From contig JBHGAY010000004.1 of the NCBI GenBank assembly GCA_041946735.1, forward strand, positions 5,425 through 69,424: a DNA stretch of 64,000 bases, in the 5' to 3' direction. Both the position numbers and the translations under genes were made by a program. The notes below the pieces were generated by a model. It made no database searches. It worked only from the letters and a program-made list of their open reading frames with translations, and was not told the origin of the DNA. The DNA comes from Candidatus Eiseniibacteriota bacterium (GTDB lineage Bacteria; Eisenbacteria; RBG-16-71-46; CAIMUX01; VGJL01). Shown here piece after piece: positions 27,462-57,379 of the stretch (its first letter is position 1; each line of letters starts with the position of its first letter).

Positions 27462-28499
27462 TCATCCTCCCAGGAGACGAATGCTCGGGAGCGACACGCT
27501 CCCCGCAGATCGCTTGCCCGTCTCGACTGCGCGCTGGAACTCTTCCGCCCCTTTCGGCTTCTGCCACACGCTCTGCCGGATCGTCTGCGCGATCTCCTCG
27601 TCGGGCGCGCCACGCCGCAGCGGGCCGCGGAGATCGACGCCGAGCTGGGAGAAGAGGCACAGGCCGAGCCGGCCCGACGCGGTCATCCGGATGCGGTTGC
27701 AGGCTCCGCAGAACGGGTCCGTCAACGAGGCGATGAAGCCGACGCCGCCGGCACCGCCCGCGAAACGGAAGCTCTCCGCGACCCGCGCGCCTCGCGCGGT
27801 CGCCGGTTCGAGCTTGCGCTCCTCCTCGATCCAGCTACGGACGCGATCGAGCGGAAGGACGAGATCCGGGCGCCATGCGGTCCCGCAGAGCGGCATGAAC
27901 TCGATGAAGCGGACCTCGATCGCGAGACGTTCGGCCATCTCGCAGAACGCGAGGACCTCGGCCCGCTCGAGATCGCGCATCGCCACGACGTTCACCTTCA
28001 CGGCGAGCCCACTCGTGAGCGCCGTCTCGATCCCCCGCAGGACGAGGTCGATCTCGTCCCGGCCGGTGATGCGCTCGAAGCGCTGCCGATCGAGGCTGTC
28101 GAGGCTCACGTTCACGGAGTCGAGACCGGCGTCGGCGAGGCGGCGCGCGAGCGCGGAGAGGCGCGCGCCGTTCGTCGTGAGCGCGAGCGAGGCGATCCCT
28201 TCGATGCAGCGAAGGCGCTCGACGAGCGGGACCAGGTCGCGGCGCAGAAGCGGCTCGCCGCCGGTGAGACGGATCTTCCGGACTCCGAGGCGCGCGAAGA
28301 TTCGGCATAGCCGCTCGATCTCTTCGGACGAAAGCAGCTCGTCGCGCGGCTGCAGCGCGAAGCCGCTCGCCGGGTGGCAGTAGGTGCAGCGGAAGTTGCA
28401 CAAATCGGTCACCGAAACGCGCAGGTAGTCGAGCCGGCGGCCGTGGCGATCCTCGAGGCACGCCGAGCCCGTAGCGCGTTCCGCCGCATCCGGTCTCAA
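27462..28499 (-). CDS. moaA: GTP 3',8-cyclase MoaA (radical SAM, molybdenum cofactor biosynthesis)
   Basis: RLDYLRVSVTDLCNFRCTYCHP (CxxxCxxC), a GG motif (RKIRLTGGEPLL) and the C-terminal second-cluster Cys triplet are present. The start is set at TTG 28499 (GGAGGAG 8 nt upstream, TTGA overlap with the delta-chaperone stop). The upstream ATG 28586 lacks an RBS. Confidence 0.85.
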   Translation of the reverse strand: MRPDAAERATGSACLEDRHGRRLDYLRVSVTDLCNFRCTYCHPASGFALQPRDELLSSEEIERLCRIFARLGVRKIRLTGGEPLLRRDLVPLVERLRCIEGIASLALTTNGARLSALARRLADAGLDSVNVSLDSLDRQRFERITGRDEIDLVLRGIETALTSGLAVKVNVVAMRDLERAEVLAFCEMAERLAIEVRFIEFMPLCGTAWRPDLVLPLDRVRSWIEEERKLEPATARGARVAESFRFAGGAGGVGFIASLTDPFCGACNRIRMTASGRLGLCLFSQLGVDLRGPLRRGAPDEEIAQTIRQSVWQKPKGAEEFQRAVETGKRSAGSVSLPSIRLLGG

Positions 28500-29143
28500 C
28501 GTTCCGGCTCCTCCGCCGGCGCGGGCAGCCGGCCGCCGGCCGCGTCGACGACCGCGACGAGAAGCGAGAGGAGGTCGCGCAGGCATGGATAGGGACAGTC
28601 CGCGGCCTTCCCGGCCGCCAGGCCGACCCAGCTCGCGACGTGCCGCTCCAGGTACTCGGATCGAGCGCGCCGGATCTGCTCGAGACGCTCGGAATCCGTC
28701 TCCGCCGCCTCCCTCTCGCATAGATAGCCGAGGAAGTCGAGCTGGTGGCGGAGATGGTCGGAGGTCTCCTCGCTCCCCGCGGAGAGGCGCAGGCCGAACG
28801 CCGCGTAGAAGAGGATATTCTCGTGCAGGATCCGGGGGACCGGATCGCGGCGCAGATAGTGCGATTCGATCAGCGGGACGTGCGGATGCGGCGCGCCCAC
28901 CTCGAACGTCTCGATGTATTGCGTCTCGTACTCCCTCGCGGACCGGGGAAGGGGCGCGGGTCCGGACAGACCGAGCCGGGCCGCGAGATCCGTCCAGGCT
29001 CCCCACGTTTCCTTCGATCGCAGGAACTCCCATTGCTCGGCGCCTGGGGGACGGAAGAGGTCGCGGACGAATCGAAAGGCCGAAGCGAGCGCGCGAGCCT
29101 CCTCGCGATCCTGCCCGTCCGTCGCCGGCGGGATGCCGCTCAC
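28496..29143 (-). CDS. TorD/NarJ-like redox enzyme maturation chaperone (delta subunit)
   Basis: GTG 29143 overlaps the gamma stop (GTGA). The all-helical product has TorD-family features (FRFVRDLF..., ETQYIETFEVGAP, LDFLGYLCEREAAE). Its position after the alpha, beta and gamma subunits is typical. Confidence 0.6.
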   Translation of the reverse strand: MSGIPPATDGQDREEARALASAFRFVRDLFRPPGAEQWEFLRSKETWGAWTDLAARLGLSGPAPLPRSAREYETQYIETFEVGAPHPHVPLIESHYLRRDPVPRILHENILFYAAFGLRLSAGSEETSDHLRHQLDFLGYLCEREAAETDSERLEQIRRARSEYLERHVASWVGLAAGKAADCPYPCLRDLLSLLVAVVDAAGGRLPAPAEEPER

Positions 29144-29891
29144 GGGGCGCCCCCGATCTCGCGCAGCTCGTACCACACGCTGTAGAACTTCAGTCCGTCC
29201 CGCTGCTGCTTCTCGCCGTCCCAAACGGCAAAGGCGATGGGCGTCCCGGCGGCGGCCGGCGGGATCTGGAAGACGCACTCCCAACCATCGGCCGTGCGTC
29301 GGACCGATCCGGGGATCGCTTGCCCCGTGCGGGTCGTCGTCCCGCGGCCGGCCGCGATCAGCCGCTCGAAGCCGCGCGTCCCGTGCCAGTAGTAGAGGTC
29401 GACCGGATGGGCCGCGTCTCCCATCATCAGCGACGGGAAGCTGGCCGCGTCCTGCGCGTTCTGGACGTTCTGCGGGAACATCACGCAGGCGGCGTCCGCA
29501 AAACGCTCGATATCGAGCGAATGCGCCTTGTAGATCGTCGAGTCGCCGGCATCGGCGATCCTTTCCGGGGACCGCGCACGGCTGTCGGTCGGATCCGCCC
29601 ACCGCATCCGCACGAAGGTCGCTTCACCATTGGAGAGCAGCGACACCGCGGCGGCGGGACGCGCGCCATCGTCCGGGGGATCTCCGACGTAGAGCGGCGG
29701 CGTGCGATTCAGGGCGACCTGCGTCTCGATCGCCCCCCGCCAGGCCGGCTCCTCTCCGGCGACGAGGCTCGCCGTCGCGGCGATCGTGCGACCGCACGGG
29801 ATCGTCGCTTCCGCGGCGGCCCGGCCGGCGACGCCCGCCAAAAGCACGAGGAGCACGAGGAGCACGAATCCGAGAAGAATGCGCTGCCGCG

Positions 29892-29895
<4 letters not shown>
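29140..29895 (-). CDS. Gamma subunit, EB_dh-like haem-b protein of type II DMSO-reductase family enzymes, Sec-secreted
   Basis: ATG 29895 overlaps the beta stop (ATGA). Signal peptide MTRQRILLGFVLLVLLVLLAGVAGRAAAEA. Size and composition are like EbdC/SerC/DdhC/pNar gamma (conserved Met/Lys haem-ligand candidates). Confidence 0.6.
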
Positions 29896-31159
<1,264 letters not shown>

Positions 31160-31163
<4 letters not shown>

Positions 31164-34156
31164 GCCCTCCCCTGCGCGCTCGAGGACGCGTCCGCCCAGG
31201 CGGCGACGGGACCGTCATAGCGCTCGATGTCGACGCGGATGTCCCGGTTGTTGCCGGTCGGCCCCCAGTAGTTGAGGGCGAAGTTCAAGTGCCCGTACCC
31301 GCCGATCAGCTGCGTCGGTTTGATCTTGATGTACGTGAGCGATTGCCACCCGCCGCGCTGGAAGCCGAGGTATCGCTCCCACCCGTGGTACATCGTCAGG
31401 CGGCCCGTCTTCTCGCCCGGCAGGATCTTCGCGCGAACGACCGCTTCCCCCTGCTTGTTGAAGATCCGCACCCAGTCGTTGTCAGCGATGCTGCGCGCCT
31501 TCGCGTCGTCAGGGTGGATATAGACGATCGGCATCCCGCGCTGCAGGCGAAGCATGTAGCGATTGTCGCGCCACGTGGAATGGATCGACCAGCGCCCGTG
31601 CGGCGTGTTCCAGTAGAATGGATACTCCTCGTCCTCCACGAGCGGCTTGTGCACCGCGAGCTCTTCGCCGAGTTCGAGAAACCAGTCGTGATCGATGTAG
31701 AACTGCTGCCGGCCGGTGAGCGTGCGCCACGGGCGCTTGAGCTCGACCTGGTGGGTGAACGGCGTGTAGGTCCGACCTTCTTCGATCTCGCTGTTCCACG
31801 TGTCGGGATCGATTCCGACGAAACGCTGCGGGCCGTCCTGCAGGCCGCGGTAGGTCATCCCCTTCGTCTCCTGCGCATGCTCGAGGATGAAGTTCACCGC
31901 GTCCTCGTCCGTCGCGAGCTTCCCTTCTCCGGACCATGCCTCGTGGAGGCGCGTGAAGTCTCGTGTCCACTGCAGGTCCGCGTCCTCGAACGGCGCGAGT
32001 CCCCGCGCCGCGGCGATCTCCGACATCTTGCTTGCGAGAGCGGAGAAGATGTCCCAGTCGGTACGCGATTCGTAGAGCGGGTCGAGCACCTTGGAGAACG
32101 GATGGAGGAATGAGTGGCAGTCGGTCGAGTTGATGTCGGTCTTCTCATAGTAGCTCGACGCGGGGAGGACGATGTCGCTGTAGAGCGCTGTCGTGTCCAT
32201 CCGGTAGTTGATGTCGACGATGAGGTCGAGATCCTTCCACAGGGATCGCAGGATCGCCTCGTTGCCCTTCGCCTGGTTCAGATAGTTCGCGCGCCACACG
32301 ATGAGGGATCTCGGCTTTCGCGGCAGATCGTGCATCGTCTCCGGCGTGAGGGAGGCGAGATCCTGCTTCGGCCAGAGCGGCATCCACTTCTTCCGCACCG
32401 ACTCGAGGATCCACGACTCGATCGGGCGTCCCTCGATCGGATGGGGGTCGCTCTGGCGCGAATGGAGGTAGCTCCAGAGCGTCATGTTCTGCATGCGCTG
32501 CTTCTTCGCCCCCTCGGGGAAGGCGAGCGCCTTGAAACCATGCTCCGGCCAGATCCGCTCCTGCCCGACGTAATGGTTGAAGCCGCCGCCGTTCTTGCCG
32601 ACGTTCCCTGTGAGCGCGACGATCAGGATCATCGCCCGGTTCGCGAGGTCGTTGTGGTACCAGTGGTTCGTGCCGGCGCCGTGGATGATCATCGCCGGCT
32701 TGCGGGTGAACAGGCGCGCGAACTCGACGAGATCCGCTTCGGCGATCCCGCACGCCTCGGCGGCGCGGGCAGGCTCGTAGGCCGGGTCGGACAGCATCTC
32801 CTTCACACGGGCGAAGACCGTGGTCACCTCGGCCGTCGCGCCGTCGGCCAGCCGGACGGTCCAGACTCCTTCGAGATCCGGATCGACCTGCCCCAGCTCG
32901 ATGCTTCGCGCCGTCGACCCCATGCTGCCCGGCACCTGGGCCACCCGCCCGCTCCGCGCGTCGTGCACGTAGAAGACCGCGTCCGGATCGTGCGTGAGCT
33001 TCGGCGGCTGGCTCGCAGGCGCCGTCGGATCGCTCACCTGCGATGCCGTCTTCTTCCGCTTCTCCCACGCCTCGACCTTCGGCTCGCTCCCCCGCTCGGC
33101 CGGGTCGAGATCACTCTCGCGGAGAAGCTTGCCCGTGTCGCGGCGCACGAGCAGCGGCAGGTCTGTCTGCTCCTTGATGTAGGGAATGTCGATCGCCCCG
33201 TTCTCGACGAGCCAGCGCGAGACGGCGTTGGCGAGGATCACGTCGCTCCCCGGGCGGATCCCGAGGAACAGGTCGCTATGGATCGAGCTGGAGTTGTAGT
33301 CGGGCGACACGCTCGCGATCGTGGCGCCGTTGTAGCGCGCTTCCCAGGCGAAGTGCGCGTCCGGGATGCGCGTCGCGTTGATGTTCGATCCCCAGAGGAC
33401 GATGTGCTTCGCGTGGAACCAGTCCGCGCATTCGCACGACTCCGTCTGGACCCCCCAGGTGATCGGTTCGCCGGGCGGGAGATCGCAGTACCAGTCGTAG
33501 AAGGAGCAGAAGACGCCGCCGATGTAATGCGCGAGCCGCGAGCCGGCCGAGAACGAGACCGGGGACATCGCGGGAATCACCGAGAAGAAGGTGTTCGTGT
33601 CGGGACCGTGCTGGTAGATGTTGTCGAGGAGCTTCGAAGCGATCTGCTCGAGCGCCTCGTCCCAGCTCGCCCGTCGCCACTTTCCCTCGCCCCGCTCGCC
33701 GGCCCGGATCAACGGATACTTCAGCCTCTGCGCGCCATACACGTACTCGACGAAGCAGGCTCCCTTCTGGCAGCCGCGCGGGTTGTAGTCGGGCACGTCC
33801 TGGCTGATTCGCGGATAGTCGGCCGCCTGCTCCTCGCGGAGCATGATGCCGTCCTTCACGTAGACCTTCCAGGAGCACGAGCCGGTGCAGTTGGCGGAGT
33901 GCGTGGATCGCACGACCTTGTCGTAAGTGAAGCGGCCGCGGTAGAGGTTCTCCCAGCCCCGGTACGGATAGGTCCGCAGGGGATCGACGTCGACGACCTG
34001 GAACGACTCGAGCGCGCGCGTCGGCCGGCCGAGGAAGCCGAGGATTCCGATCCCCGCGCCCGCCGCGCCGACCTTCAAGAAGCCTCGCCGGTCGATCCGC
34101 TTGCCCTCGCCCACGGGGGCCTCCTTCTTCTTCCTGTTGTCCTGTCCGTCCTTCAT
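31160..34156 (-). CDS. Alpha subunit, Tat-exported NarG-like molybdopterin oxidoreductase (type II DMSO-reductase family; pNar/Nxr-like)
   Basis: ATG 34156 overlaps the cytochrome c stop (ATGA). Twin-arginine leader KRIDRRGFLKVGAAGAGIGILG. VRSTHSANCTGSCSWKVYVKDG...YPRISQDVPDYNPRGCQKGACFVEYVYGAQRLKYP is near-identical in pattern to the NarG FS0-binding region. The product is about 998 aa. Confidence 0.85.
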
Positions 34157-35742
34157 TGCGCGGCCGCCTGTGTCGTCGTCGCTGTCGCCTCCGCGGTCGC
34201 CTCCGCCTTCGCGGTCGCCGGCGCTCCGCCTGCAGCAATCCCGAGCGTCCGGACATAGGAAACGACGTCGCGGATGTCCGCCGGTGAGAGCGCGCCGCGT
34301 GCCCCCCATGCCGGCATCGCGGTGTTCCGCCTGCCCTGGGTGATCGTCTCGATGAGGAAGGCGTCGCTCGCGTACGCCTGGAACGCCGGGGAATCGAGCG
34401 TCGGCGCGACGCCGCCCCGCCCGGCCGGGCCATGGCAACCGGCGCAGTTCTTCACGAAGAGAGACCGCCCGCGTCCCGGATCTCCGATCGGCCCCGCTGT
34501 CGCTTTCATCGGAATCTCCGAGCCGCCTGCCTCGCTGGCGGCCGGGCGGATCTCCTCGCCCGCCACCTCGCGACCGAGCACGAACGAGACGATCTGGCGG
34601 ATGTCCTCCTCCGACATCCCCCCGGCCGCGAGACCCCAAGCCGGCATGATCGTTCCCCGGCGCCCGCTGCGGATCATCGCCGCGACGTACGCCGGGCTCG
34701 CCGCCGCCTTGAACGATTCCGCGCGTACGGCCGGGATGAACGAGCGGAAGAACTTGTCGTAGCGCCCCAGCTCCCCCGTGTCGTGGCACGTGGAGCAGAA
34801 ACGGTTGTACAGATCGGCGCCGGTCATCGGCGCTGGATTTGCGGACGCATAGATCATGAGATGCTTCTCGGGAGTCAGATACGAACCGGGCAGGTCGCGC
34901 TGCTGCTGCGCGAGGAGGAAGGTAGTCAACGCCTCGGTCTCGCCCCGCGACAGCCCGGGACACGGCATCTGGCTCCCGGCGACAACCGCCTGCGGGTCGG
35001 CGAAGTGTTCGATCAACCACTCCGGGACGGTGTGCGGTCCCTGGATGCCGGCCATCGGGAGATTCCCGCGGACCTTCAGCCCCTCGTTGTCGAGAGCCGG
35101 CCCCAGGCTTCCTCCGCGCCCGCCGAGCTTGTGGCAGGACCTGCAGCCCTTCGCCTCGAAGAGGGCCGCGCCGGCCGCGTACGTCTCTCCTCCGTTCTCA
35201 GCCACTTCGCGCGCTGCGTGGCAGACGCCGCACGACGACTGCGTCAGCTCGAGCGGCAGGAGGGGATAGTCCCAGTGTCGGTCCTCCGCCTTCGCGTCCT
35301 CGAAGGACATCGCGCGTCCCTGCCCGCGATGGCAGATCGTGCAGCCGAACCGGTTCGGATCGTGCCACTGGAGATAGGCCCCCGGATGGACCCGGTGGGG
35401 ATTCGCCACGTCGGTCATCCGCGGATCGTCGACCCCGTTGTGGCAGGAGACGCATCGGTCGATCGTCCCGATCTCCGGCAGGACGACCTGGCGCATTTCC
35501 ACATGGAAGTCGTTCGCGATCTTCCGTCCCCGGTCATCGGTCGCCTTCGCGCTCAGAATGCGCTGGTACTCCCGCTGGTAATGCCTCCAGGGATTCCACA
35601 CGTTCTCGCGGAGCGCGGCAGCGCCGAGCAAGGCGATCGTCAGGACGCTCATCGAGAGCAGCGCGAGCTTCACACGCCGGTCCCGCCGCTCCGCCTCCCG
35701 GCGCGTCGCCTGCGAGATCCGGGAGCCGTCCTTCTCGTTCAT
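34153..35742 (-). CDS. Membrane-anchored hexahaem c-type cytochrome
   Basis: ATG 35742. An N-terminal TM helix, then six CxxCH motifs: CVSCH, CTICH, CGVCH, CRSCH, CSTCH, CAGCH. Confidence 0.8.
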   Translation of the reverse strand: MNEKDGSRISQATRREAERRDRRVKLALLSMSVLTIALLGAAALRENVWNPWRHYQREYQRILSAKATDDRGRKIANDFHVEMRQVVLPEIGTIDRCVSCHNGVDDPRMTDVANPHRVHPGAYLQWHDPNRFGCTICHRGQGRAMSFEDAKAEDRHWDYPLLPLELTQSSCGVCHAAREVAENGGETYAAGAALFEAKGCRSCHKLGGRGGSLGPALDNEGLKVRGNLPMAGIQGPHTVPEWLIEHFADPQAVVAGSQMPCPGLSRGETEALTTFLLAQQQRDLPGSYLTPEKHLMIYASANPAPMTGADLYNRFCSTCHDTGELGRYDKFFRSFIPAVRAESFKAAASPAYVAAMIRSGRRGTIMPAWGLAAGGMSEEDIRQIVSFVLGREVAGEEIRPAASEAGGSEIPMKATAGPIGDPGRGRSLFVKNCAGCHGPAGRGGVAPTLDSPAFQAYASDAFLIETITQGRRNTAMPAWGARGALSPADIRDVVSYVRTLGIAAGGAPATAKAEATAEATATTTQAAAQ

Positions 35743-35776
35743 CCTCGATCCCCCTCGCGCCGGCGCAGCCTCGGCA

Positions 35777-37405
35777 TCAGTGAACCGGCCATGACGACTT
35801 GCTCCAATAGAAGCCCCAGTTGGGACCGCGCAGCTCCGATCCCACGAAAGTCAGGACGACGAAGCCGACAAGGAAGCAGAGGAACAGCGCGATCGCCGCC
35901 GCGCGCGTCGATCCGGTGCGGTGCAGGATCGCGAGGGACCATCCGGCGTAGAGGGCGGTGAGGATCGTCCCGGGATTGAGCGCGATGATCACGATCTGCG
36001 GAATCGACGGGAACCAGGTGCGCAGCCATCCGAACCGCACGGGGATCGCGACGGCGAGCACGGCGGCGACGAGCGCGAAGAGCGCGCTCTGCGCGGCGAT
36101 GCGCCTGCCCCGCGGCCCGCTCAGCACGACGCCCGCCTGCTCGCGCTCCCGGTCGAGGAACGGAATCAGCCCGAGCCCCAGGATCGCGATCGCCGGAATC
36201 ACCATCCCGCCGACGAAGGCCGAGTAGGAAACCATCTCCTGGAGCCCGAGGAAATACCAGGGAGCCTTCGCCGGATTCTCCGGAACGGCGGGATTCGCGA
36301 GCTCCTTCAGCGGCGCGTTCCAGAACAAGCCGAGGACGAGACAGGCGGCTGCGCAGGCCATGAGGACGAAGAGCTCCGCGCGCAGCACGTACGGCCACGC
36401 CGGAATCGTGTCCGCGGGATCGACGTTTACCGCGGGAGTGCGGTCACGCACGATGCACATGAGGCCGTAGGTCTTTCGCGGCGCCTCGCTCGGCGCCGCG
36501 GGCACGCTCCCCGGAATCGCCGAGCCCTTGCCCGCCGCCGTCGGCGGCCCGTCGGGACGGCCCAGCCCCCCGTCCTTGCGGATTCGCCAGAAGTGGATCC
36601 CCGCCACCATCGCGAGGGCGAGCGGCAGCACCATGACATGGAGCAGGTAGAAGCGGATCAGCGCCTCTTGCCCGACCGCGTTGGCGCCCAACAGCAATCG
36701 TTTCTGGAACCCGCCCGGATCGAAGAAGCCGGTGATCCCGATCGCGTCGGTCAGTTCGCGGGGGGAACCGGCGATGTTCGCGCCGATCGTGATAGCCCAG
36801 TAGGCGAGCTGGTCCCAGGGGAGAAGGTACCCGGTGAAGGAGAGTCCGAGCGTCAGCACGAAGAGCACCATGCCGACGAGCCAGTTGAACTCGCGCGGCT
36901 TCTTGTAGCTCGCCGTGAAGAACACCCGAACCATGTGCACGAGGACGGTCACGACCATCAGGTGCGCCGCCCAGCGGTGGATGTTGCGGATGAAGCGGCC
37001 GGTCGGCACGACGTAATGGATGTCCTTGATGCTGTCGTACGCCTGGTCGATCGAAGGCTTGTAGTACACCATCAACAGGATCCCGGTCGCGACGAGGATG
37101 AGGAAGAACGAGAGCGAGGCCATCCCCATCGCCCATGTGGTCGAGAAGCGCAGCGTGCGAACATTGACGCGCGTGGAATGAAGGTGGAGGAAGAGGTTCG
37201 AGAAGATCGTCTGCGACCGCGTCCGGTCCGTCTCGGGACGCCCGTGACGGAAGAAGGAGTCCCGCAGGTTTTCGGGAAGGCGGCGCAGGTTCTCCACGAA
37301 CGGCCCGAACCCGCCGTCATGCTCGCGCTCGCCGTCGCGGCCGCGTTCGCCGTCACGCTGGCGGTCGCGGTCACGCTCGCGGCCGCGCGACTCGATCGTC
37401 GCCAT
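35777..37405 (-). CDS. Cytochrome b (fused b6 + subunit IV type) of a bc-like quinol oxidising complex
   Basis: ATG 37405 with GAGGAGGAG RBS. HRWAAHLMVVTVLVHMVRVFFTASYKKPREFNWLVGMVLFVLTLGLSFTGYLLPWDQLAYW carries the haem-ligand His pairs of cytochrome b. A C-terminal SUIV-like half is fused. The N-terminal extension is RD/RE-rich. Confidence 0.85.
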   Translation of the reverse strand: MATIESRGRERDRDRQRDGERGRDGEREHDGGFGPFVENLRRLPENLRDSFFRHGRPETDRTRSQTIFSNLFLHLHSTRVNVRTLRFSTTWAMGMASLSFFLILVATGILLMVYYKPSIDQAYDSIKDIHYVVPTGRFIRNIHRWAAHLMVVTVLVHMVRVFFTASYKKPREFNWLVGMVLFVLTLGLSFTGYLLPWDQLAYWAITIGANIAGSPRELTDAIGITGFFDPGGFQKRLLLGANAVGQEALIRFYLLHVMVLPLALAMVAGIHFWRIRKDGGLGRPDGPPTAAGKGSAIPGSVPAAPSEAPRKTYGLMCIVRDRTPAVNVDPADTIPAWPYVLRAELFVLMACAAACLVLGLFWNAPLKELANPAVPENPAKAPWYFLGLQEMVSYSAFVGGMVIPAIAILGLGLIPFLDREREQAGVVLSGPRGRRIAAQSALFALVAAVLAVAIPVRFGWLRTWFPSIPQIVIIALNPGTILTALYAGWSLAILHRTGSTRAAAIALFLCFLVGFVVLTFVGSELRGPNWGFYWSKSSWPVH

Positions 37406-37421
37406 GATCTCTCCTCCTCGC

Positions 37422-37889
37422 CTACGCCTTGTAGAAGGTCATCGGAGGGACTTCCCGCTCCGCGTCGACCAACAGAGACCCGTCCGCCGCCTGCGACACT
37501 TCCAGCCAGCGCAGCGGGCGCGGCGCCGGGCCGCGCCGCAGCTCGCCGTCCGGCCCGAAGCGCGACCCATGGCAGGGGCAGGCGAATCCATCCTCCGATT
37601 CGCCTACGATGCATCCGAGATGCGTGCAGACGAGCGACAGCGCCGCGATGCCCCGCGCGTCGGAGATCAGCCGGACGTTGCGCTCGGGAACGACACGCGC
37701 CGTGCCGGCGGGGAACTCCTCCGGCCTGCCGACACGGAAGCGGCTTCCCGCCTCCGGCAGCACGCTCGGCTTCGGGAGCCGGGCCATCCCGATCACAGCG
37801 CCAAAGATGGCGAGCGCGGCGCTCCAGGAGCCGGCAAGGCCGAGGAAGTCGCGGCGAGGGATCGGTTCGGGTTCTAGGCGATGCGACAT
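37422..37889 (-). CDS. Rieske [2Fe-2S] protein
   Basis: ATG 37889 with AGGAG upstream. RRDFLGLAGSW Tat-like anchor. CTHLGC ... CPCHGS Rieske boxes. Confidence 0.8.
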   Translation of the reverse strand: MSHRLEPEPIPRRDFLGLAGSWSAALAIFGAVIGMARLPKPSVLPEAGSRFRVGRPEEFPAGTARVVPERNVRLISDARGIAALSLVCTHLGCIVGESEDGFACPCHGSRFGPDGELRRGPAPRPLRWLEVSQAADGSLLVDAEREVPPMTFYKA

Positions 37890-39859
37890 TTCGGGTTCTC
37901 CTGGAAATGGAACCGCTCCATCGTGATCGCTCCGGTCGGACAGCGCTCCGCGCACAGCCCGCATCGGATGCAGATCGTCTCGTCCTTGAGGATCGCGGAG
38001 GCCCGGTCCGGTTCCGTCCCGTCGAGCTGAGCCTCGAGGACGGGCGCGAGCGAGACCTCGCCGGTCAGGCGGTCGACGGAGACGATCCTCAGGCAGAGCT
38101 CCGGACAGACGTCGACGCAGCCCCCGCACAGGATGCACTTGTCGCCGTCGAAGATCGTGTTGACGCCGCAGTCGAGGCAGCGCGATGCCTCGCGGCGCGC
38201 CTGCTCGGCCGAGTACCCGATCTCCACCGGAGCCGCCTGCGAGCGGAGCCTCTCTGCAACCGGGGCGGCCGGTAGCGCGACACGGCGGATCGCTTCGTAC
38301 CCCGGCTCGCGCGCGTAGTCGGGAATCCCCAAGTGCAGCTCGAGCGCCTCTGCTCCGATCGCCCGGCCGGTCGCCGCCTCGTAGATCGCCCGCGCGACGG
38401 CCTTCCCCGACGCGACGGCGTGGATCAGTAGTTTCGGGCCGTAGGCCAGATCTCCGGCCACGAAAACGTCCGGCGCGTTCGTTCGCCCCGTCACCGGATC
38501 GCAGGCGAGAAATCCGCGCGGGGATAGCTCCAGCCCGTCTCGCTGCGGATCGACGAAGCCGACGTCGATCCCCTGCCCGATGCTCGTCAGGACCGTGTCG
38601 CACTCGATCGTTTCGGTCTGCGTCTCGTCGAATACCGGAGCGAAGCGTCGATTCTCGTCGAAGACCCGCAGGCACTTCTTGAACACCACGCCGCGCAGGC
38701 GCCCGGAGGCGTCCTTGAGGATCTCGGATGGGCCCAGCCCGTTGCGGCGCACGATCCCCTCCTCGTCCCCCTCGAGGATCTCGACGTCGTCGGCCGGCAT
38801 TTCCTCGAGAGACTCGAGGGAGCAGAGCCAGACCTTGCCGGGCGCGCGGCCGCCGGGACCCGCCGCTTCCATCTCGCGCTCGATCTCGCGCAGCGCGGTG
38901 CGCGCTGCGTCACTCGCGATCTGGCGAAGGACGGTGCGGCCCACGTCGTAGGCGACGTTCCCTCCACCGATCACGACGACCCGGTTGCCGATCGCGGGCG
39001 GACGGCCGAGGGAAACGTCACGCAGGAACTCCACGCCTCCGAGGACGCCGGCGGCGTCGGCGCCCGGGATCGGGAGCGCGCGGGATCGCTTCGCTCCCAC
39101 CGCGATCACGACCGCGTCGTGGCGCGCGCGCAACTCCGCGAAGGTGAGATCCCGGCCGACCTGGCAGTTCGTGACCGCCTTGACACCCATCTCCAGAATC
39201 ACCTCGACCTCGGCGCGGATCAGATCGCGCGGGAGTCGATACTCCGGCACGCCGACCGCAAGCATCCCGGCGAGGACCGGCTCCATCTCGTAGATCGTGA
39301 CCGCGAAGCCGAGCAGCGCCAGATCGTGCGCCGCTGCGAGGCCGGCCGGACCGCTGCCGATGATGCCGGCGGAGCGGCCGGAGACCGGAGGAACGTCTCC
39401 GGAAAGGAGGGACTGCAGAAGGGGGAGGATCTCGTCGACGTCCCGGCAGGGCTGCGGCGCATGGCGACGGGCGGCCTCTTTCAGGAGCTCGATCAACGAA
39501 CGGCCGGTGTGGGGCGTCGATGCGGGCACCGCCTCGACGCCGTACTTCTCGCAGACGAAACGTTTGAGGGCGCGGATGGCGATCGGCCGGTCCAGTTCGC
39601 CGCGGCGGCACGCAACCTCGCACGGCGCGCCGCAGATCCGCCCACAGATGGAGGCGAGAGGGTTCGGCCCTCGGGCGATCAGGTAGGCCAGCTCGTCGTC
39701 CCCGGCCGCAATGGCGCGCACGTAGCCGCGGGCGTCGGTGTGCACGGGGCAGGCCGCCTGGCATTTGATCTGCTCCTTCCAATAGGAGAGATCCGGCACG
39801 CGGACCTCGGCGCCGTTCGAGGAGTCGATCGGCTCCCAGCCGTTGCCGTCGCGGCTCAC
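37874..39859 (-). CDS. GltD-like NAD(P)H-dependent FAD oxidoreductase with N-terminal and C-terminal 4Fe-4S ferredoxin domains
   Basis: GTG 39859 overlaps the Rrf2 stop (GTGA). The N-terminus CQAACPVHTDARGY...CGRICGAPCEVAC is as in glutamate synthase small subunit-like proteins. AGIIGSGPAGLAAA (FAD) and VVVIGGGNVAYD (NAD(P)) are present. The C-terminal CILCGGCVDVCP and CIRCGLCAERCP. Confidence 0.75.
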   Translation of the reverse strand: MSRDGNGWEPIDSSNGAEVRVPDLSYWKEQIKCQAACPVHTDARGYVRAIAAGDDELAYLIARGPNPLASICGRICGAPCEVACRRGELDRPIAIRALKRFVCEKYGVEAVPASTPHTGRSLIELLKEAARRHAPQPCRDVDEILPLLQSLLSGDVPPVSGRSAGIIGSGPAGLAAAHDLALLGFAVTIYEMEPVLAGMLAVGVPEYRLPRDLIRAEVEVILEMGVKAVTNCQVGRDLTFAELRARHDAVVIAVGAKRSRALPIPGADAAGVLGGVEFLRDVSLGRPPAIGNRVVVIGGGNVAYDVGRTVLRQIASDAARTALREIEREMEAAGPGGRAPGKVWLCSLESLEEMPADDVEILEGDEEGIVRRNGLGPSEILKDASGRLRGVVFKKCLRVFDENRRFAPVFDETQTETIECDTVLTSIGQGIDVGFVDPQRDGLELSPRGFLACDPVTGRTNAPDVFVAGDLAYGPKLLIHAVASGKAVARAIYEAATGRAIGAEALELHLGIPDYAREPGYEAIRRVALPAAPVAERLRSQAAPVEIGYSAEQARREASRCLDCGVNTIFDGDKCILCGGCVDVCPELCLRIVSVDRLTGEVSLAPVLEAQLDGTEPDRASAILKDETICIRCGLCAERCPTGAITMERFHFQENPKCRIA

Positions 39860-40350
39860 CGCGTCCGCCGTCCCGCCGCGGCCACCTTGCCGCGCGCCTG
39901 CTGCGCCACTTTGCCGCCGGGCGCCTGCTCCGCCGCCTTGGCGCCGCGCGCCTGCGCGACCGCCTCGCCGAGCGTGCGCTTCCGGAGGGAATCGACCAGC
40001 GCGTCTCTCAGCTCGCTCCATTCCCAGTGAAGGATGCAGGCGCTCGTGTCGGAGCAGCGCGATTGCCCGAGCAGGCAGACCCGCTTCGTCCCGAACGTGT
40101 CGAATGCCTGGACGATCTGCAGCAGCGAAATGCGGCCGGCGGAGCGAGCGAGGCGAAAGCCTCCCGTCTTCCCCCGCTGGCTTTCCAGGATCCCTGCGGA
40201 GGCGAGCACGCGAAGGATCTTCGCCAGATATTGCGGAGGAAGATCGACGACGCGAGCGATCTCGCGGTTGAGGAACCAGTCTCTCTCCTCGCTCTCGGCC
40301 GCCATGTACGCGAGGGCGCGGATGGCGTATTGGGCGCTCGTGGAAATCAT
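39856..40350 (-). CDS. Rrf2-family transcriptional regulator (NsrR/IscR-like, three-Cys cluster site)
   Basis: ATG 40350. MISTSAQYAIRALAYMA... is a winged-helix N-terminus. CLLGQSRCSDTSAC has C-x6-C-x5-C spacing, as in Fe-S-binding Rrf2 regulators. Confidence 0.75.
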   Translation of the reverse strand: MISTSAQYAIRALAYMAAESEERDWFLNREIARVVDLPPQYLAKILRVLASAGILESQRGKTGGFRLARSAGRISLLQIVQAFDTFGTKRVCLLGQSRCSDTSACILHWEWSELRDALVDSLRKRTLGEAVAQARGAKAAEQAPGGKVAQQARGKVAAAGRRTR

Positions 40351-40429: not shown

Positions 40430-41062
40430 TCAAACAGTCTCGGTCAGATCTTCCCGGCGGTTCACGTTGCGGAGGGCGCTCGCGACCCGGATTCTCCCGA
40501 CGAAAGCGGCGGAGAGAAGGGTCGCGCCCACGCTCTCGATCACCCGGTGCATGGACGTTCCTTCGGGTGCCGAGGAGAACGCCCGTAGGACGGATCGGTG
40601 GTACAGGCCGGGGAACGGATGCAGTCGCCCGCCGGGCTCCCCATAGCAGACGACCGGCTCCGTCCGTCCTGCGGCTGGCCCGGTGCCACCGGCCCGGATC
40701 GACGCGAGAAGTGGGCGGAGCACTGCAGAGGTCACTCCGGGCATGTCGACGGCGAGGATGAGCGCCCAGTCGGACGATTCGCTTGCAGCATGGGTGAGCG
40801 CGACCCTCACCCCCTCCACGGGACCGAGGCCGGGACGCTCACCCGTCAGGACAGGGGCGCGATACCGCCGGAAAGGCGCCGGATCGGGAGCGACGATCCG
40901 CGGATGGATGTTCAACTCCCGCATCGCCCGAAGCGCGAGCGCGAGGAGACTCCTCCCCCGGTGCGTCGCCAGGGCCTTGTTCGATCCGAACCGCCGCGAC
41001 GCGCCACCGGCGAGAACGAAGCCGGAGACGCGCTCGTTCCCCTTCGTCCCGGCCCTCCTCAA
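40430..41062 (-). CDS. mobA: Molybdenum cofactor guanylyltransferase MobA
   Basis: ATG 41062 overlaps the PNGase stop (ATGA). GFVLAGGASRRFGSNKAL is the MobA signature. It is about 210 aa. Confidence 0.8.
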   Translation of the reverse strand: MRRAGTKGNERVSGFVLAGGASRRFGSNKALATHRGRSLLALALRAMRELNIHPRIVAPDPAPFRRYRAPVLTGERPGLGPVEGVRVALTHAASESSDWALILAVDMPGVTSAVLRPLLASIRAGGTGPAAGRTEPVVCYGEPGGRLHPFPGLYHRSVLRAFSSAPEGTSMHRVIESVGATLLSAAFVGRIRVASALRNVNRREDLTETV

Positions 41063-42444
41063 TGGAGGAACAACAGCTTCCCGCGGCCCGCCCCGTCGGT
41101 TCCGCGCACCTCGTAGAAGTACGCCCCGGCCGGAACGGCCCGGCCCGCGTCGTCCTTGCCGTCCCAGCGCACGCGATGCGATCCCGCCGCGTCATGCGAA
41201 CGTTCGATGCTGCGCACCTGACGCCCCGACGCGTCGTGGATCGTGATCGACACCACTCCGGCGTCCACCGCTCGATAGCGGATCCACGTGGCGCTGCGGA
41301 ACGGGTTCGGCGAGGCGAAAGAGAGCAGAAGCCCGCCCCCTCCCTCCGCGCTCTCGATCCCGGCCGGGGCAAGCTGCCGGTAGAGGATGAGCTGGGTCTG
41401 CAGTGACCAAATCGGCTCGGTGTGCCCCGTGTAGTTGTAGTTGCAGTCTGTGCAGGTCTGTCCCGACACGCAGTTGGGATTGTCGGGGCGGCAGTAGTTC
41501 TCGTACGGCATGATGCCGTAGTCGAGCACGGCGGTCTCCCCCGGAGTCACCGACTCGGTGATGTCGGCGTCCCACGGGTCGACCTTGTCGCCCGGACACC
41601 ACCCGGCGCGGTCGTACTGCCACGTCCCCCCCTGCGGGCTGCACAGGTTGCTCTCGCAGTCGGAGCGCCAGACATTGTGCCAGATCGAGTCGGCGTTCGC
41701 CTTGATCCAGTGGCGGCGATTGCAGAATTCGGCGCAGTTCAGCGTGTTCCCCTGGCCGTGACCGGTCGCGATCGCGCGGAACTTCACCGCGTCGGTTCCC
41801 TCCGGAATCGCAACTTCCATCGGACGCAGGTGGTTCTCGTGCGGATCGTTCGGATTGCCGTAGACGAGGTAGCCGTTCGTCCACAGGTTGCGCACCTCCA
41901 CGGGAACGAGCGACGGCGTTCCTTCGACGAACGCGAAGTCGATCGTGACGAGCCAGCCGCGCGTCCCTCCGATCCAGCTCTCGATGTAATTGACGAGCGT
42001 CACCTCGTCGTGCAGGAGCATCCGGTAGTCGGTGACGTCCAGAACCCAGGTGCACGTCCCTGGCCTCGGGCCTCCGGTAATGTCGTACGGGGTGACGATG
42101 CGGGCGATCTCGATGTCTCCCCCGGGGCGCTGGACGCGAAGCCATCCGAGCCGGTCCCAAGGATCACAGTCATCGGGCGTGGGCGGACAGCCGATCTGAT
42201 AGAAGAGGAGGACCTTGTCGCAAAGGAGCTCGAGTCCGGGAAGCGTAAAGGTCCGTACGTGCGGTTCGGCCCAGTTGTAGAAGTCCTGGTCGAAGGTCCG
42301 CACCCAGGTGGTGTCGCCCGGCGCAGCGGCGGCAGCGGAGAAGACGCCGGCGAACAGCAGCAGGGCGAGAGCGCCGGTGAACACGCGCGAAGCGGACGCA
42401 CCGGCAATCTTGATCGAGAACGAGTTGCAGGAGCTGTCCCTCAT
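41059..42444 (-). CDS. Peptide-N4-(N-acetyl-beta-glucosaminyl)asparagine amidase F (PNGase F) homologue with C-terminal FlgD-Ig/T9SS-like sorting domain
   Basis: ATG 42444 with GGAGG 5 nt upstream. Signal peptide. Collinear matches to Elizabethkingia PNGase F: CDPWDR, IARIVTPY, LDVTDY, ESWIGGTRGWLVTIDFAFVEGTP, CAEFCNRRHWIKANA, GTWQYDRAGWCPG. The tail is NPFRSATWIRY...VRWDGKDDAGRAVPAGAYFYEV. Confidence 0.8.
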   Translation of the reverse strand: MRDSSCNSFSIKIAGASASRVFTGALALLLFAGVFSAAAAAPGDTTWVRTFDQDFYNWAEPHVRTFTLPGLELLCDKVLLFYQIGCPPTPDDCDPWDRLGWLRVQRPGGDIEIARIVTPYDITGGPRPGTCTWVLDVTDYRMLLHDEVTLVNYIESWIGGTRGWLVTIDFAFVEGTPSLVPVEVRNLWTNGYLVYGNPNDPHENHLRPMEVAIPEGTDAVKFRAIATGHGQGNTLNCAEFCNRRHWIKANADSIWHNVWRSDCESNLCSPQGGTWQYDRAGWCPGDKVDPWDADITESVTPGETAVLDYGIMPYENYCRPDNPNCVSGQTCTDCNYNYTGHTEPIWSLQTQLILYRQLAPAGIESAEGGGGLLLSFASPNPFRSATWIRYRAVDAGVVSITIHDASGRQVRSIERSHDAAGSHRVRWDGKDDAGRAVPAGAYFYEVRGTDGAGRGKLLFLH

Positions 42445-46210: not shown

Positions 46211-46454
46211 GAGTGCCTCCTGGGTGGTAGCACGAAGATCGCTTCGAAAAGGGGCGTAACTAGTATAGTGCCCAGGCGCTCTTCGAACAACGTAACGCAT
46301 GCGCCACAACTCTTGACGTTACCCATCCGCCGGCCTGCTCTTGATCGCATCGCTTCGGTGCGGTAGCTTCGCGCGTTCGCCGCGCGGCGGCGGCGTTCCT
46401 TCCAAACGCCGGAATCCAAGCTTCGAGCGCACGCAAGCGCGTAGGAGGTCAGTG

Positions 46455-53826: not shown

Positions 53827-53866
53827 TTCTAGGTAAGGCCGTGCTCCTTCTAGGTAAGGCCGTGCT
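53827..53866. repeat. Perfect 19-bp tandem duplication (period 21) spanning the stop codon of the sigma-54 activator
   Basis: TTCTAGGTAAGGCCGTGCT occurs at 53827-53845 and again at 53848-53866. The second copy encodes the last codons plus the stop of the minus-strand gene. Confidence 0.8.
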
Positions 53867-55976: not shown

Positions 55977-56347
55977 GAGGGGAAAGGTAGCAAAGTCGGG
56001 TAGCGAGGCGGCCAGAGGGAAGTGGCATGCGCGTTACTTCACAAGCGGCGAGGCCGCTCTGGCGCGCCGCCTGGTGCGAAAGTGTTTTCGGTCGAGCTCG
56101 CCGGCCGGATCCTCAGGGTCCCCGGAGCACACAGCAGAGAATGGGGGCGAGCGAGCACGGCCCCGGGGCGGGGGTCGCCGTTCCTTCCCGGAGAACGATC
56201 CCTCGGGAATCGACTGTGACCCGTGTGATTCCGATCCGGGCGCATCGTCTCCGGTATGGGCAGATCCGCGCCCTGCGTACCCCGGGACGCGACGACCGGA
56301 GGGGTGTCTGTACGCTGCGCCCGGAGCCCGCCCGAAGGGAGGAGACG

Positions 56348-57088: not shown

Positions 57089-57379
57089 TCGAGTGCCGTC
57101 GGGTCTGAAAGTCGGCGAACGAACATCTCCTCCCCGGAGCCAAACACGCCGCCGCCACGAACATTCGAGGAAGCTGGCGCGTGCTCGCCGTCATTGCGGC
57201 CGGGTTCGGCTGCTTCTCGATCGAAGCAACCGCTGAATTAGCCGTTGAAGTAGCCGTCCCCGGCCGCTATCCTCTCCCGTTCGTTTCGACGCTTGCCCCC
57301 GCCCGGCGCGACGGCGGTTCCACGATCGATCCCTTTTCGTCATCCACGATATCTGGCGGCCGCCATGGAGGTTCGTGTC

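Follow-up and report, generated by a model that had tools for sequence, protein, structure and literature searches.

A predicted periplasmic nitrate reductase of Eisenbacteria encoded with an anammox-type Rieske/cytochrome b module and an NAD(P)-binding flavoprotein

The DNA analysed here is a stretch of 64,000 nucleotides (hereafter the window) from contig JBHGAY010000004.1 of a Candidatus Eiseniibacteriota bacterium, and our subject is a set of ten consecutive minus-strand genes located between window positions 27462 and 40350. From 5' to 3' they are rrf2, a gltD-like flavoprotein gene, the genes for a Rieske protein, a cytochrome b and a cytochrome c, the genes for the alpha, beta, gamma and delta components of a molybdoenzyme, and moaA. 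Each family assignment was confirmed with Pfam and NCBIfam models. Analysis of this locus suggests that it encodes a bacterial periplasm-facing NarG-type nitrate reductase (pNar) whose dedicated electron supply is an anammox-type Rieske/cytochrome b complex with a cytoplasmic flavoprotein that binds NAD(P), and that quinol electrons would be split between nitrate and NAD(P)+. We assign this reading a probability of roughly 0.6.

A preliminary description of the window, made without database searches, had reported the ten genes as a chain linked by 4-nt start/stop overlaps. The chain and its six overlaps are read here in the same way: GTGA at 39856–39859, ATGA at 34153–34156, GTGA at 31160–31163, ATGA at 29892–29895, GTGA at 29140–29143 and TTGA at 28496–28499. 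A public contig with an identical alpha gene (Logan SRR29307520, 32.7 kb) carries an independent gene call with the same boundaries for nine genes. In that call beta starts at a GTG at 31157, 6 nt downstream of 31163; the alpha/beta overlap therefore exists with the start at 31163 and is ambiguous. An open reading frame at 37072–37614 was rejected as the Rieske gene, as its translation is low-complexity nonsense and the true gene lies in another frame. G+C content is 65–73% across the whole window. A scan for promoter and terminator consensus sequences between 26500 and 42000 gave counts not above those of shuffled controls and therefore carries no information on transcript boundaries.

The alpha subunit scores 1116 bits against TIGR03479 (cut-off 985) and aligns with this model end to end, which assigns it to the type II dimethyl sulphoxide (DMSO) reductases. 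It carries a twin-arginine translocation (Tat) leader, in which the motif RRGFLKVGAAGAG spans residues 23–35 and a hydrophobic stretch comes after D-R-R-G-F-L-K at residues 22–28; the alignment with mature PcrA begins only at residue 62. Signal peptides of alpha, the Rieske protein, gamma and the cytochrome c were judged by eye and from hydropathy. The predicted ligands of the FS0 cluster, H86, C90 and C94 together with the cysteine of PRGC, align with those of E. coli NarG, PcrA and Haloferax NarG. The aspartate ligand of the molybdenum is present, and the sequence around it, SFYDWYCDLPP, is identical to that of E. coli NarG. The histidine of the NHWYH motif, which is equivalent to His546 of E. 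coli NarG, is also kept, whereas it has been lost in haloarchaea. The substrate-gate residues Phe219, Tyr220 and Glu533 (in GQERIW) are of the NarG type (the roles of gate and proton-relay residues are taken from PMC8301774). At the third of these positions the NarG proteins compared here likewise have Glu while PcrA has Trp461 (Trp489 in precursor numbering), so that alpha lacks the gate residue of PcrA.

Comparison with solved structures gives 886–890 bits over the full length for PcrA, 546 bits for E. coli NarG, 395 bits for EbdA and 216 bits for Kuenenia NxrA (7b04_B). The last match covers a partial stretch only, which separates alpha from the NxrA lineage. The W461E mutant of PcrA (5e7o) scores slightly above the wild-type protein. 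More than 5,700 database proteins match alpha at E<1e-50; the best 120 of these, its own 100% partial copy aside, are 64–79% identical, are spread over many phyla and carry generic names. A neighbour-joining tree (896 columns, 100 bootstraps) was built with Haloferax NarG, Ideonella ClrA and E. coli and Thermus NarG from annotated plasmids and PcrA from the PDB alignment as references. In this tree alpha falls in a clade with sequences of Eisenbacteria, Terriglobia, Gemmataceae, Omnitrophota, Zixibacteria and Armatimonadetes, which is sister to the clade holding Methanoperedens NarG with 100% bootstrap. Haloferax NarG and PcrA come next; identity to these proteins, Methanoperedens included, is 47–52% in the trimmed alignment. 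ClrA-like proteins (37% identity) and cytoplasmic NarG (40–42%) lie outside, so that alpha, with its Tat motif, stands apart from the cytoplasmic enzymes. Known periplasmic nitrite oxidoreductases (NXRs), that of Nitrotoga included, belong to another lineage in published trees (PMC6050957).

A separate observation from the tree concerns the alphas of Rhodoplanes serenus, R. elegans, R. azumiensis and related strains (L026–L029, L036), which are sister to Azospira PcrA with 100% bootstrap and keep the gate Trp (GQWK) together with YGDHPT. These are cultured phototrophs, and the alpha sequences suggest that the isolates may carry a perchlorate-reductase-like enzyme.

Two identities were considered for the window alpha and rejected. 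Perchlorate reductase, the top PDB match, was set aside because alpha differs from it in gate residue and ligand motif and because the 64-kb window has no chlorite dismutase gene. An NXR identity was set aside in view of the PDB scores and the published phylogeny (PMC6050957). On these comparisons alpha, beta, gamma and delta are predicted to constitute a bacterial pNar. The preliminary description had held substrate and direction to be unreadable from the sequence; we now favour the nitrate/nitrite couple and, as the likely direction, nitrate reduction, because the phylogeny, the active-site residues and the recurrence of the module beside four types of nitrate reductase (see below) all point there.

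The assignment of beta, delta and an EB_dh-type gamma exported by the general secretory (Sec) route to a Tat-exported type II alpha is borne out by models and motifs. Beta is 56% identical to Haloferax NarH and has 15 core cysteines in four groups, corresponding to three [4Fe-4S] clusters and one [3Fe-4S] cluster, with the third group reading C-x2-F-x2-C-x3-C. Gamma scores 91 bits against TIGR03477, below the cut-off of 170; it has a signal-like helix at residues 6–24 only and is without a C-terminal anchor. Its Met158 (in MG(D)) and Lys236 (in RDGxK) align with a conserved pair in ClrC, Haloferax Orf7 and orthologues, and from the structure of EbdC we take them to be candidate axial haem ligands. 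Delta scores 92.5 bits against TIGR03482, below the cut-off of 152.

Beta also has a C-terminal tail of ~100 residues (29892–30200), which ends in C-x-G-C-x-L-x3-C (DCSGCALAQQCG, 29937–29972). The motif is shared with the two closest unclassified-bacterium loci only (L003 and L004), and the tail is absent from the betas of Terriglobia, Gemmataceae, Methanoperedens and Haloferax. The tail may serve as an additional metal site or in docking.

The Rieske protein, a cytochrome b fusing b6-like and subunit IV (SUIV) parts, the hexahaem cytochrome c and the GltD-like iron-sulphur (FeS) flavoprotein, all of which the preliminary description had placed in the operon together with a three-cysteine Rrf2 regulator, are present as described. 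The flavoprotein consists of an N-terminal Fer4_20 domain, an FAD/NAD(P) Rossmann domain with GxGxxG and a C-terminal 2x[4Fe-4S] ferredoxin domain. It is without a signal peptide or a convincing transmembrane helix (beta and delta also show no convincing helix). Its best solved relative is NfnABC (9bov/9bp5, 277 bits), and NfnI and GltD are also among the closest; Hauser et al. likewise found the NfnABC structure for Kuste4570 of Kuenenia (PMC12954380). Identity to the Kuenenia subunit is 33% over 498 residues and 48% over the N-terminal 82 residues, and all 16 cysteines are invariant in the relatives aligned, Kuenenia included. A database comparison of the flavoprotein gives 7,947 matches at E<1e-30; the best 120 are mostly 66–78% identical and come from Eisenbacteria, Latescibacterota, Binatia, Omnitrophota, Verrucomicrobia and others.

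The Rieske protein has the boxes CTHLGC and CPCHGSRF and a transmembrane helix at residues 15–33. Its best solved relatives are Kuste4569 (9rk4, 82.7 bits) and Kustd1480 (9rk3, 62.4 bits), and it is 37% identical to the Kuenenia protein over 148 residues. The second box has the Ser/Phe pattern of Kustd1480, whose Rieske centre has been measured at +335 mV (PMC12954380).

The cytochrome b has about eight helices, four haem histidines and an N-terminal FRHG...LFLHLH segment with His74; this N-terminus is shared with Kuenenia. Among solved structures b6 is its best relative (142 bits). It is 48% identical to the Kuenenia protein over 256 residues, its SUIV part is 34% identical to that of Kuenenia, and identity to Haloferax NarC is just 27.5%; the module is therefore nearer to the anammox one than to the haloarchaeal one. 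In the alignment His74 (LFLHLH) is matched by Kuste4571 His43, which lies in VWLHLH of the Kuenenia sp. protein, and the first His is kept in all relatives aligned. Binding of an extra interfacial haem b by His43 of Kuste4571 is a proposal based on AlphaFold3 (PMC12954380). The CxGG motif for covalent attachment of haem cn is absent from the cytochrome b, which reads TWAMGM against TWCMGG in Kuenenia. This agrees with the report that long, fused cytochromes b of subfamily G are without CxGG (PMC5600118).

An observation on the Qo site may be added. The motif is APWY (PAKAPWYFLGLQE, window 36236–36274, residues 378–390 of the cytochrome b) and not the usual PEWY or PDWY, and it is identical in Kuenenia subunit IV and in every module relative aligned. 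From these alignments APWY may be a signature of the module family.

The cytochrome c has an N-terminal helix (residues 26–44, transmembrane) followed by three closely spaced haems and then by three class-I cytochrome c domains; its six CxxCH motifs are at residues 97, 134, 171, 200, 316 and 433. Its solved relatives are generic, and the match to the Kuenenia hexahaem protein, which is likewise membrane-anchored, is weak (32% over 57 residues).

Table 1. Genes, motifs and gene junctions of the operon, in window coordinates. Junctions are given as the distance between neighbouring genes, negative values being overlaps.
Feature	Position	Strand	Basis or remark
MobA-like molybdenum cofactor guanylyltransferase	40430..41062	-	NTP_transf_3; best NCBIfam match MobA 73 bits, below 164
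Junction mobA-like/rrf2			+79 nt
Rrf2 regulator, 164 aa from ATG	39856..40350	-	PF02082 103 bits; TTG at 40386 possible as start
Junction rrf2/gltD			-4 nt
GltD/NfnB-like NAD(P)-binding FeS flavoprotein, 661 aa, predicted cytoplasmic	37874..39859	-	Fer4_20 + Pyr_redox_2 + 2x Fer4
Junction gltD/Rieske			-16 nt (overlap)
Rieske [2Fe-2S] protein, 155 aa	37422..37889	-	PF00355; Tat RRDFLG, one transmembrane anchor
Junction Rieske/cyt b			+16 nt
Long cytochrome b, 542 aa, with a four-helix b6-like portion joined to subunit IV and one additional helix	35777..37405	-	PF00033, ExtP/ExtQ-like
Junction cyt b/cyt c			+34 nt
Hexahaem cytochrome c, 529 aa, membrane-anchored	34153..35742	-	Cytochrome_CBB3 x3 + Cytochrome_C7
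Junction cyt c/alpha			-4 nt
Alpha, Tat-exported NarG-type catalytic subunit with molybdenum bis(pyranopterin guanine dinucleotide) (Mo-bisPGD), 998 aa	31160..34156	-	TIGR03479, PDB ranking, neighbour-joining tree
Alpha, Tat motif RRGFLK	34073-34090	-	
Alpha, FS0 motif HSANCTGSCSW	33869-33901	-	residues 86-96
Alpha, Mo-ligand motif SFYDWYCDLPPGE with Asp225	33467-33505	-	
Alpha, NHWYH	32654-32668	-	
Alpha, gate Glu533	32549-32575	-	
Junction alpha/beta			-4 nt
Beta, 423 aa	29892..31163	-	TIGR03478 493 bits (cut-off 481); start 31163 or 31157
Junction beta/gamma			-4 nt
Gamma, Sec-exported soluble EB_dh-type haem-b protein, 251 aa	29140..29895	-	PF09459 43.6 bits (cut-off 33.3)
Junction gamma/delta			-4 nt
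Delta, NarJ/TorD-family chaperone, 215 aa	28496..29143	-	PF02613 57.6 bits (cut-off 22.2)
Junction delta/moaA			-4 nt
MoaA, GTP 3',8-cyclase, molybdenum cofactor biosynthesis	27462..28499	-	TIGR02666 341 bits (cut-off 284)

The order gltD-Rieske-cyt b-cyt c-alpha-beta-gamma-delta was found in 13 of 13 loci in which alpha is ~60% identical or better and enough upstream DNA is available (L003, L004, L007–L013, L016, L023, L034 and L066). Hosts of these loci are Terriglobia, Bryobacteraceae, Solibacter, Gemmataceae and unclassified bacteria, and the same gene order is seen in three further loci (L092, L109 and L112). Because of this conservation the arrangement in the window is not due to chance. 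The ten genes, whose junctions are overlaps of 4–16 nt or gaps of at most 34 nt, are predicted to be co-transcribed, the Nar set together with the Rieske/cytochrome b module. The module is absent from the Methanoperedens and Rhodoplanes alpha loci.

A metagenome scan seeded with an alignment of the flavoprotein gave 80 loci, among which close and distant forms of the module can be told apart. In the close forms (GltD-like protein 52–60% identical, fused cytochrome b, cytochrome c with 6–7 haems) a nitrate-reductase-type molybdoenzyme follows directly after the cytochrome c gene in all 12 loci with enough downstream DNA. The partner is a pNarGH of the window type in three of the 12, an NxrA-like enzyme in seven, a NapA-like enzyme in one and a canonical NarGH in one (L126). 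The NxrA-like type is best represented by L101 (10001–21700), where a Tat-type alpha of 1,147 residues matches Kuenenia NxrA (7b04) over its full length with 850 bits and is accompanied by beta, gamma and a chaperone; six further loci (L103, L104, L105, L107, L108 and L111) were assigned to this type by their tblastn pattern only. Judged by these sequences, enzymes of the NXR/pNar lineage of Nitrospira and anammox bacteria are predicted to be wired to the module in non-anammox metagenome contigs also. The NapA-like partner, seen in L090 (10001–21914, Verrucomicrobia), L091 (9117–21045, Binatia) and L095, is divergent and of the Tat type. It keeps RMCMTSAV as its Cys-ligand motif, and its best solved relatives are NapA. 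Two NapG-like genes and one NapH-like gene lie downstream of it, and the multihaem cytochrome c of these loci has ~906 residues. In L126 (10001–21860, 52% G+C) the module precedes NarG and NarH, whose scores of 1460 and 659 bits exceed the equivalog cut-offs and which are without a Tat signal.

The distant forms (GltD-like protein 39–46% identical) have a split b6 and SUIV and an octahaem cytochrome c, and come mostly from soil and peat metagenome contigs. Many of them, L122, L127, L132, L136, L151, L156 and L163 among others, have no molybdoenzyme within 6–10 kb. Outside anammox bacteria, modules are carried by Eisenbacteria, Terriglobia, Gemmataceae, Latescibacterota, Verrucomicrobia, Binatia and others.

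The Latescibacterota locus (L089, CP070763.1) was discarded as a case of a module without a molybdoenzyme. A run of N at about 14170–14270, just past the N-terminus of the cytochrome c, interrupts this gene in a single-contig record of 3.8 Mb; the sequence beyond the gap encodes an unrelated membrane protein, and genes may be missing there.

Every component of the operon is of a known kind, since haloarchaea have a pNar with a Rieske/cytochrome b pair and anammox bacteria have NAD(P)-linked Rieske/cytochrome b complexes. The haloarchaeal parallel was drawn in the preliminary description and is confirmed by the Haloferax mediterranei cluster (L083), which reads narA-Rieske(narB)-cyt b(narC)-orf-narG-narH-orf7 (EB_dh)-narJ (TorD). 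Both systems have a Tat-exported NarG-type alpha with an H-x3-C-x3-C FS0 site and an Asp ligand, a NarH-like beta, an EB_dh gamma and a TorD/NarJ chaperone; in both, Rieske and cytochrome b genes lie directly upstream, and electron supply through a Q-cycle is proposed. Nitrate reduction in haloarchaea is antimycin-sensitive and nar is clustered with Rieske/cytochrome b genes, according to work cited in PMC4683180. However, the window alpha is only 49% identical to Haloferax NarG, which is not its nearest clade, and the Qo motif is APWY in the window and PDWF in NarC. The Haloferax cluster is without the flavoprotein and without a multihaem cytochrome c, its Orf7 has a C-terminal membrane anchor that gamma lacks, and its NarG has Asp at the position equivalent to His546, where the window and E. 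coli have His.

The second parallel is found in Kuenenia. The gene sets Kuste4569–4574 (R/b-3) and Kustd1480–1485 (R/b-2) encode a b6-like cytochrome b, SUIV, a hexa- or octahaem cytochrome c and a cytoplasmic NAD(P) oxidoreductase that has FAD and four FeS clusters as cofactors (PMC12954380). The flavoprotein, which the preliminary description had considered foreign to the described systems, is thus a known subunit, and its co-occurrence with subfamily-G cytochromes b in other phyla has also been noted (PMC5600118). For the anammox Rieske/cytochrome b complexes, a bifurcation has been proposed in which electrons from quinol go both to NAD(P)+ and to a high-potential acceptor, as summarised from Kartal et al. 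2013 in PMC12954380, and the Kuenenia subunits are reported to be expressed as one complex (PMC12954380; de Almeida 2016 as cited in PMC5600118). Using a Kuenenia sp. locus retrieved through its Rieske sequence (L087) and protein comparison by BLASTP, we find that the window shares with these complexes a Tat-type Rieske protein, a b6-like cytochrome b, SUIV, a 16-Cys FAD/NAD(P) protein and a multihaem cytochrome c in place of cytochrome f/c1. After the cytochrome c gene the anammox set has an HAO-like gene where the window has pNar; both are nitrogen-oxyanion reductases. Unlike in Kuenenia, the cytochrome b and SUIV are fused in the window, the flavoprotein gene precedes the Rieske gene and its product has an insertion of ~45 residues, a molybdoenzyme takes the partner position and the host lies outside the anammox bacteria. 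A likeness to Nitrospira and anammox Nxr loci had been suggested earlier; the resemblance to anammox bacteria holds for the Rieske/cytochrome b module, through its homology to Kuenenia, but not for alpha with its low NxrA score.

The NarGH of Methanoperedens, which belongs to the sister clade (51–52% identity), shares with the window the Tat signal, the Glu gate, an Orf7-type gamma and NarJ. Its electrons are thought to come from menaquinol via a Rieske/cytochrome b complex and cytochromes c (PMC4683180). Unlike in the window, Rieske/cytochrome b homologues were not found within 10 kb of Methanoperedens narG and lie elsewhere in the genome; a flavoprotein subunit has not been reported there, and the cluster has NapH-like and HCO-II-like genes. 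PcrAB of Azospira (4ydd/5e7o) and the window enzyme, at 48% identity, have the fold, FS0, Asp ligand and Phe-Tyr gate pair in common; the window enzyme differs in having Glu533 for Trp461 and YCDLPP for YGDHPT, and the window is without a PcrC or chlorite dismutase context.

Two further published descriptions bear on the arrangement. Thermogutta terrifontis R1 is a cultured planctomycete that respires nitrate to nitrite, and its genes THTE_1512–1506 (Rieske, cytochrome b, cytochrome c, NarG, NarH, third subunit, TorD) are in the window order, as compared by the published gene order alone; the authors treat the enzyme as a cytoplasmic NarGHI (PMC5673643). Dibrova et al. reported that subfamily-G cytochromes b co-occur with large Cys-rich NAD(P)-binding oxidoreductases in planctomycetes and 'in many other cases', and described a clade (G') whose long cytochromes b are encoded in operons that are large, conserved and without an assigned function (PMC5600118). 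Judged by this description, the window fits the G/G' account. Dibrova et al. neither name nitrate reductases as the partner nor propose a function (PMC5600118). In the open-access literature searched, neither the joining of the module with a bacterial pNar nor the constant position of close modules in front of one of four nitrate-reductase types has been described.

Because gamma is soluble and the enzyme is without a membrane anchor, an external electron donor is needed. The Rieske/cytochrome b complex with its membrane-anchored hexahaem cytochrome c is the obvious donor, a role well supported by the sequence comparisons, and we regard it as highly probable that the nitrate reductase is fed by this complex. 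In the mechanism that we propose, quinol (probably menaquinol) would be oxidised at the Qo site of the fused cytochrome b with release of 2 H+ to the outside. The first electron would pass over the Tat-exported Rieske cluster to the hexahaem cytochrome c and from there, via the haem b of gamma, the four FeS clusters of beta and the FS0 of alpha, to the Mo-bisPGD, where nitrate would be reduced to nitrite in the periplasm. The second, low-potential electron would cross the membrane via the two b haems and possibly an extra interfacial haem b at His74, and would then run through the four FeS clusters of the flavoprotein and its FAD to NAD(P)+, driven by the +430 mV nitrate branch. This would be the quinol-based bifurcation proposed for Kuste4569–4574, here in an operon headed by a regulator that may be of the FeS-type Rrf2 kind.

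The standard potentials are about -74 mV for menaquinol and +430 mV for nitrate/nitrite, so that the first electron drops by about 0.5 V. By our own arithmetic this drop would be enough to lift the second electron by about 0.25 V to NAD(P)+ and across a membrane potential of ~0.15 V, while a normal Q-cycle would waste most of it. Bifurcation fits the locus because the module repeatedly pairs with nitrogen-oxyanion enzymes of very high potential and because its Rieske protein resembles those of Kuenenia. That the proteins form one complex, and that nitrate is the substrate and is reduced, we infer from sequence. The fullest version of this proposal, a natural quinol:nitrate/NAD(P)+ bifurcating supercomplex whose module family, large and present outside anammox bacteria, has been recruited repeatedly by four unrelated nitrate reductases and stores the ~0.5 V gap as NAD(P)H, must at present be considered doubtful.

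Several points weigh against the proposed model, a pNar supplied by bifurcation of quinol electrons. Even in anammox bacteria, bifurcation of this kind has the status of a proposal only. Autotrophy, which would create an obvious need for quinol-derived NAD(P)H, is not known from Eisenbacteria, Terriglobia or Gemmataceae, and the flavoprotein could equally deliver electrons from NAD(P)H. In the Kuenenia model haem cn is on the electron path; as CxGG is absent from the window, the path here would have to differ, and the hexahaem cytochrome c is barely similar to that of Kuenenia. The stand-alone distant modules imply that the module is not intrinsically tied to nitrate, and in those organisms it may be a general complex III. 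Because of these modules and the missing haem cn, we place the reduction of NAD(P)+, as opposed to input from NAD(P)H, somewhat below an even chance. The partner in L126 is a cytoplasm-facing NarGH, which is not obviously served by a periplasmic cytochrome c; NarC of Thermus and the bcc-dependent Nar1 of Streptomyces are possibly relevant precedents (PMC7931247). With respect to the substrate side, NarG-type active sites are also present in the nitrite-oxidising NXRs of the Nitrobacter type, and residues alone therefore do not fix the direction; the tree contains few references and is without EbdA, SerA, DdhA and NxrA.

The alternative that survives best, and which we regard as unlikely, reverses the flavoprotein: NAD(P)H would be oxidised at FAD and its electrons would enter the low-potential chain of the cytochrome b or the Qi site, so that the whole would act as a self-contained NAD(P)H:nitrate oxidoreductase, running a Q-cycle without bifurcation to NAD(P)+. 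As probable heterotrophs, the hosts need to reoxidise NAD(P)H, the path from -320 mV to the b haems and quinone is downhill and asks for no special energetics, and haem cn, part of the Kuenenia exit path, is missing. GltD/NfnB-type modules are commonly NAD(P)H entry points, and NfnABC, NfnI and GltD are the closest solved relatives. A non-bifurcating role has also been proposed for the anammox complexes by de Almeida et al. 2016, as cited in PMC5600118. This alternative, however, leaves unexplained why the module is tied to acceptor enzymes of very high potential and why the Rieske protein resembles the unusually high-potential ones of Kuenenia (PMC12954380), and a plain NADH:quinone reductase would not need a Rieske/cytochrome b complex.

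It is improbable that two independent systems merely share a transcript, with a general complex III from which pNar draws electrons and a flavoprotein of unrelated cytoplasmic function. Distant modules do stand alone without a molybdoenzyme (L122, L127, L132, L156 and L163). Selenate reductase, a soluble type II enzyme, reportedly draws its electrons from an ordinary bc1 complex via a cytochrome c (Lowe and colleagues, 2010), which would be a similar case. In Thermogutta terrifontis the adjacent Rieske/cytochrome b pair is annotated as the only complex III and would serve aerobic respiration too (PMC5673643). Against such independence stand the 16-nt overlap of gltD and Rieske genes, the order kept in every related locus across phyla, the nitrate-reductase-type enzyme that directly follows the close module in 12 of 12 cases, the co-variation of the 16 flavoprotein cysteines and His74 of the cytochrome b with the module as far as Kuenenia, and the reported single complex of the Kuenenia subunits mentioned above.

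Another oxyanion (chlorate, perchlorate or selenate) as the physiological substrate is still less probable. The best solved relative is indeed PcrA, haloarchaeal pNar reduces chlorate and perchlorate as well (PMC8301774), and a soluble alpha-beta-gamma enzyme with an EB_dh gamma has the architecture of Ser, Clr and Ddh. However, the gate is Glu as in all NarGs and not the Trp of PcrA, the W461E mutant outscores the wild type, ClrA falls in a separate clade, chlorite dismutase is missing from the window, and the NapA-like, NarGH and NxrA-like partners of the module have only the nitrate/nitrite couple in common.

Least probable of all is a nitrite oxidoreductase that would oxidise nitrite in the periplasm and pass its electrons back via the cytochrome c to the Rieske/cytochrome b complex in reverse electron flow. 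In its favour, Nar/Nxr enzymes of the type II family can work in both directions in vitro, nitrite oxidation benefits from a periplasmic location (PMC6050957), NxrA-like enzymes of the Kuenenia type are also found after close modules (L101) and an NAD(P)+-reducing module would suit a lithoautotroph. Against it, the clade of pNarG, PcrA and Methanoperedens is without a known nitrite oxidiser and its characterised members reduce their substrates (PMC4683180, PMC8301774), Kuenenia NxrA is a distant match, the NapA-like partners are reductases, Thermogutta with the same gene order reduces nitrate (PMC5673643), and no terminal oxidase or carbon-fixation genes were seen in the partly annotated window, 64 kb being a small sample.

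If the fullest version of the proposal is correct, quinone-based bifurcation to pyridine nucleotides would be common in the nitrate respiration of soil and sediment bacteria and not a peculiarity of anammox. That the low-potential electron could be passed on to NAD(P)+ rather than returned to quinone was put forward in about 2011–2013; the proposal is still debated and has been studied only in slow-growing anammox enrichments. The closest forms of the module are always wired to a nitrate-reductase-type enzyme, which names the likely high-potential partner reaction, and the loci point to more tractable organisms, possibly the cultured Thermogutta terrifontis, in which bifurcation could become testable. 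The operon type is common in public data but unrecognised. Relatives of alpha are labelled 'molybdopterin-dependent oxidoreductase', 'nitrate reductase alpha subunit' or 'nitrate reductase / nitrite oxidoreductase', and those of the flavoprotein 'glutamate synthase beta-like' or 'formate dehydrogenase beta'. With such generic labels, the potential for nitrate respiration in soils and sediments, and its energy yield, are probably misjudged.

The regulator at the head of the operon scores 101 bits against the Rrf2 superfamily model TIGR00738 (cut-off 73) and has three cysteines, C92, C99 and C105. An rrf2 gene is located directly upstream of gltD in at least nine further loci (L003, L004, L089, L104, L106, L108, L110, L124 and L171), most of which retain the three cysteines. 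The regulator had been likened to NsrR; the superfamily and the three cysteines stand, but an NsrR identity is not supported, the score against NF008240 being 47 bits (cut-off 182), and the SUF, IscR and RirA models score higher, all below their cut-offs. The gene just upstream, which had been called mobA, has MobA as its best match at a score below the cut-off (Table 1).

In the flanks of the operon housekeeping genes are found, and no other nitrogen-cycle genes were seen in the 64-kb window, which is only partly annotated. GatE (21973–23967, plus strand) and GatD (23954–25342, plus strand) of an archaeal-type Glu-tRNA(Gln) amidotransferase lie in this otherwise bacterial segment; with 485 bits for GatE (cut-off 456) and 500 bits for GatD (cut-off 310), both are above the limits of their NCBIfam equivalog models. 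A sigma-54-dependent activator of 727 residues is encoded at 53850–56033 on the minus strand; its best models are NifA, NorR and AtoC, all below cut-off. Three large predicted secreted proteins end in FlgD_ig-like domains (41059–42444, 42773–46318 and 57254–60016), located directly upstream of the mobA-like gene and elsewhere in the window. One of these has an N-glycanase C-terminal domain and one has beta-helix repeats.

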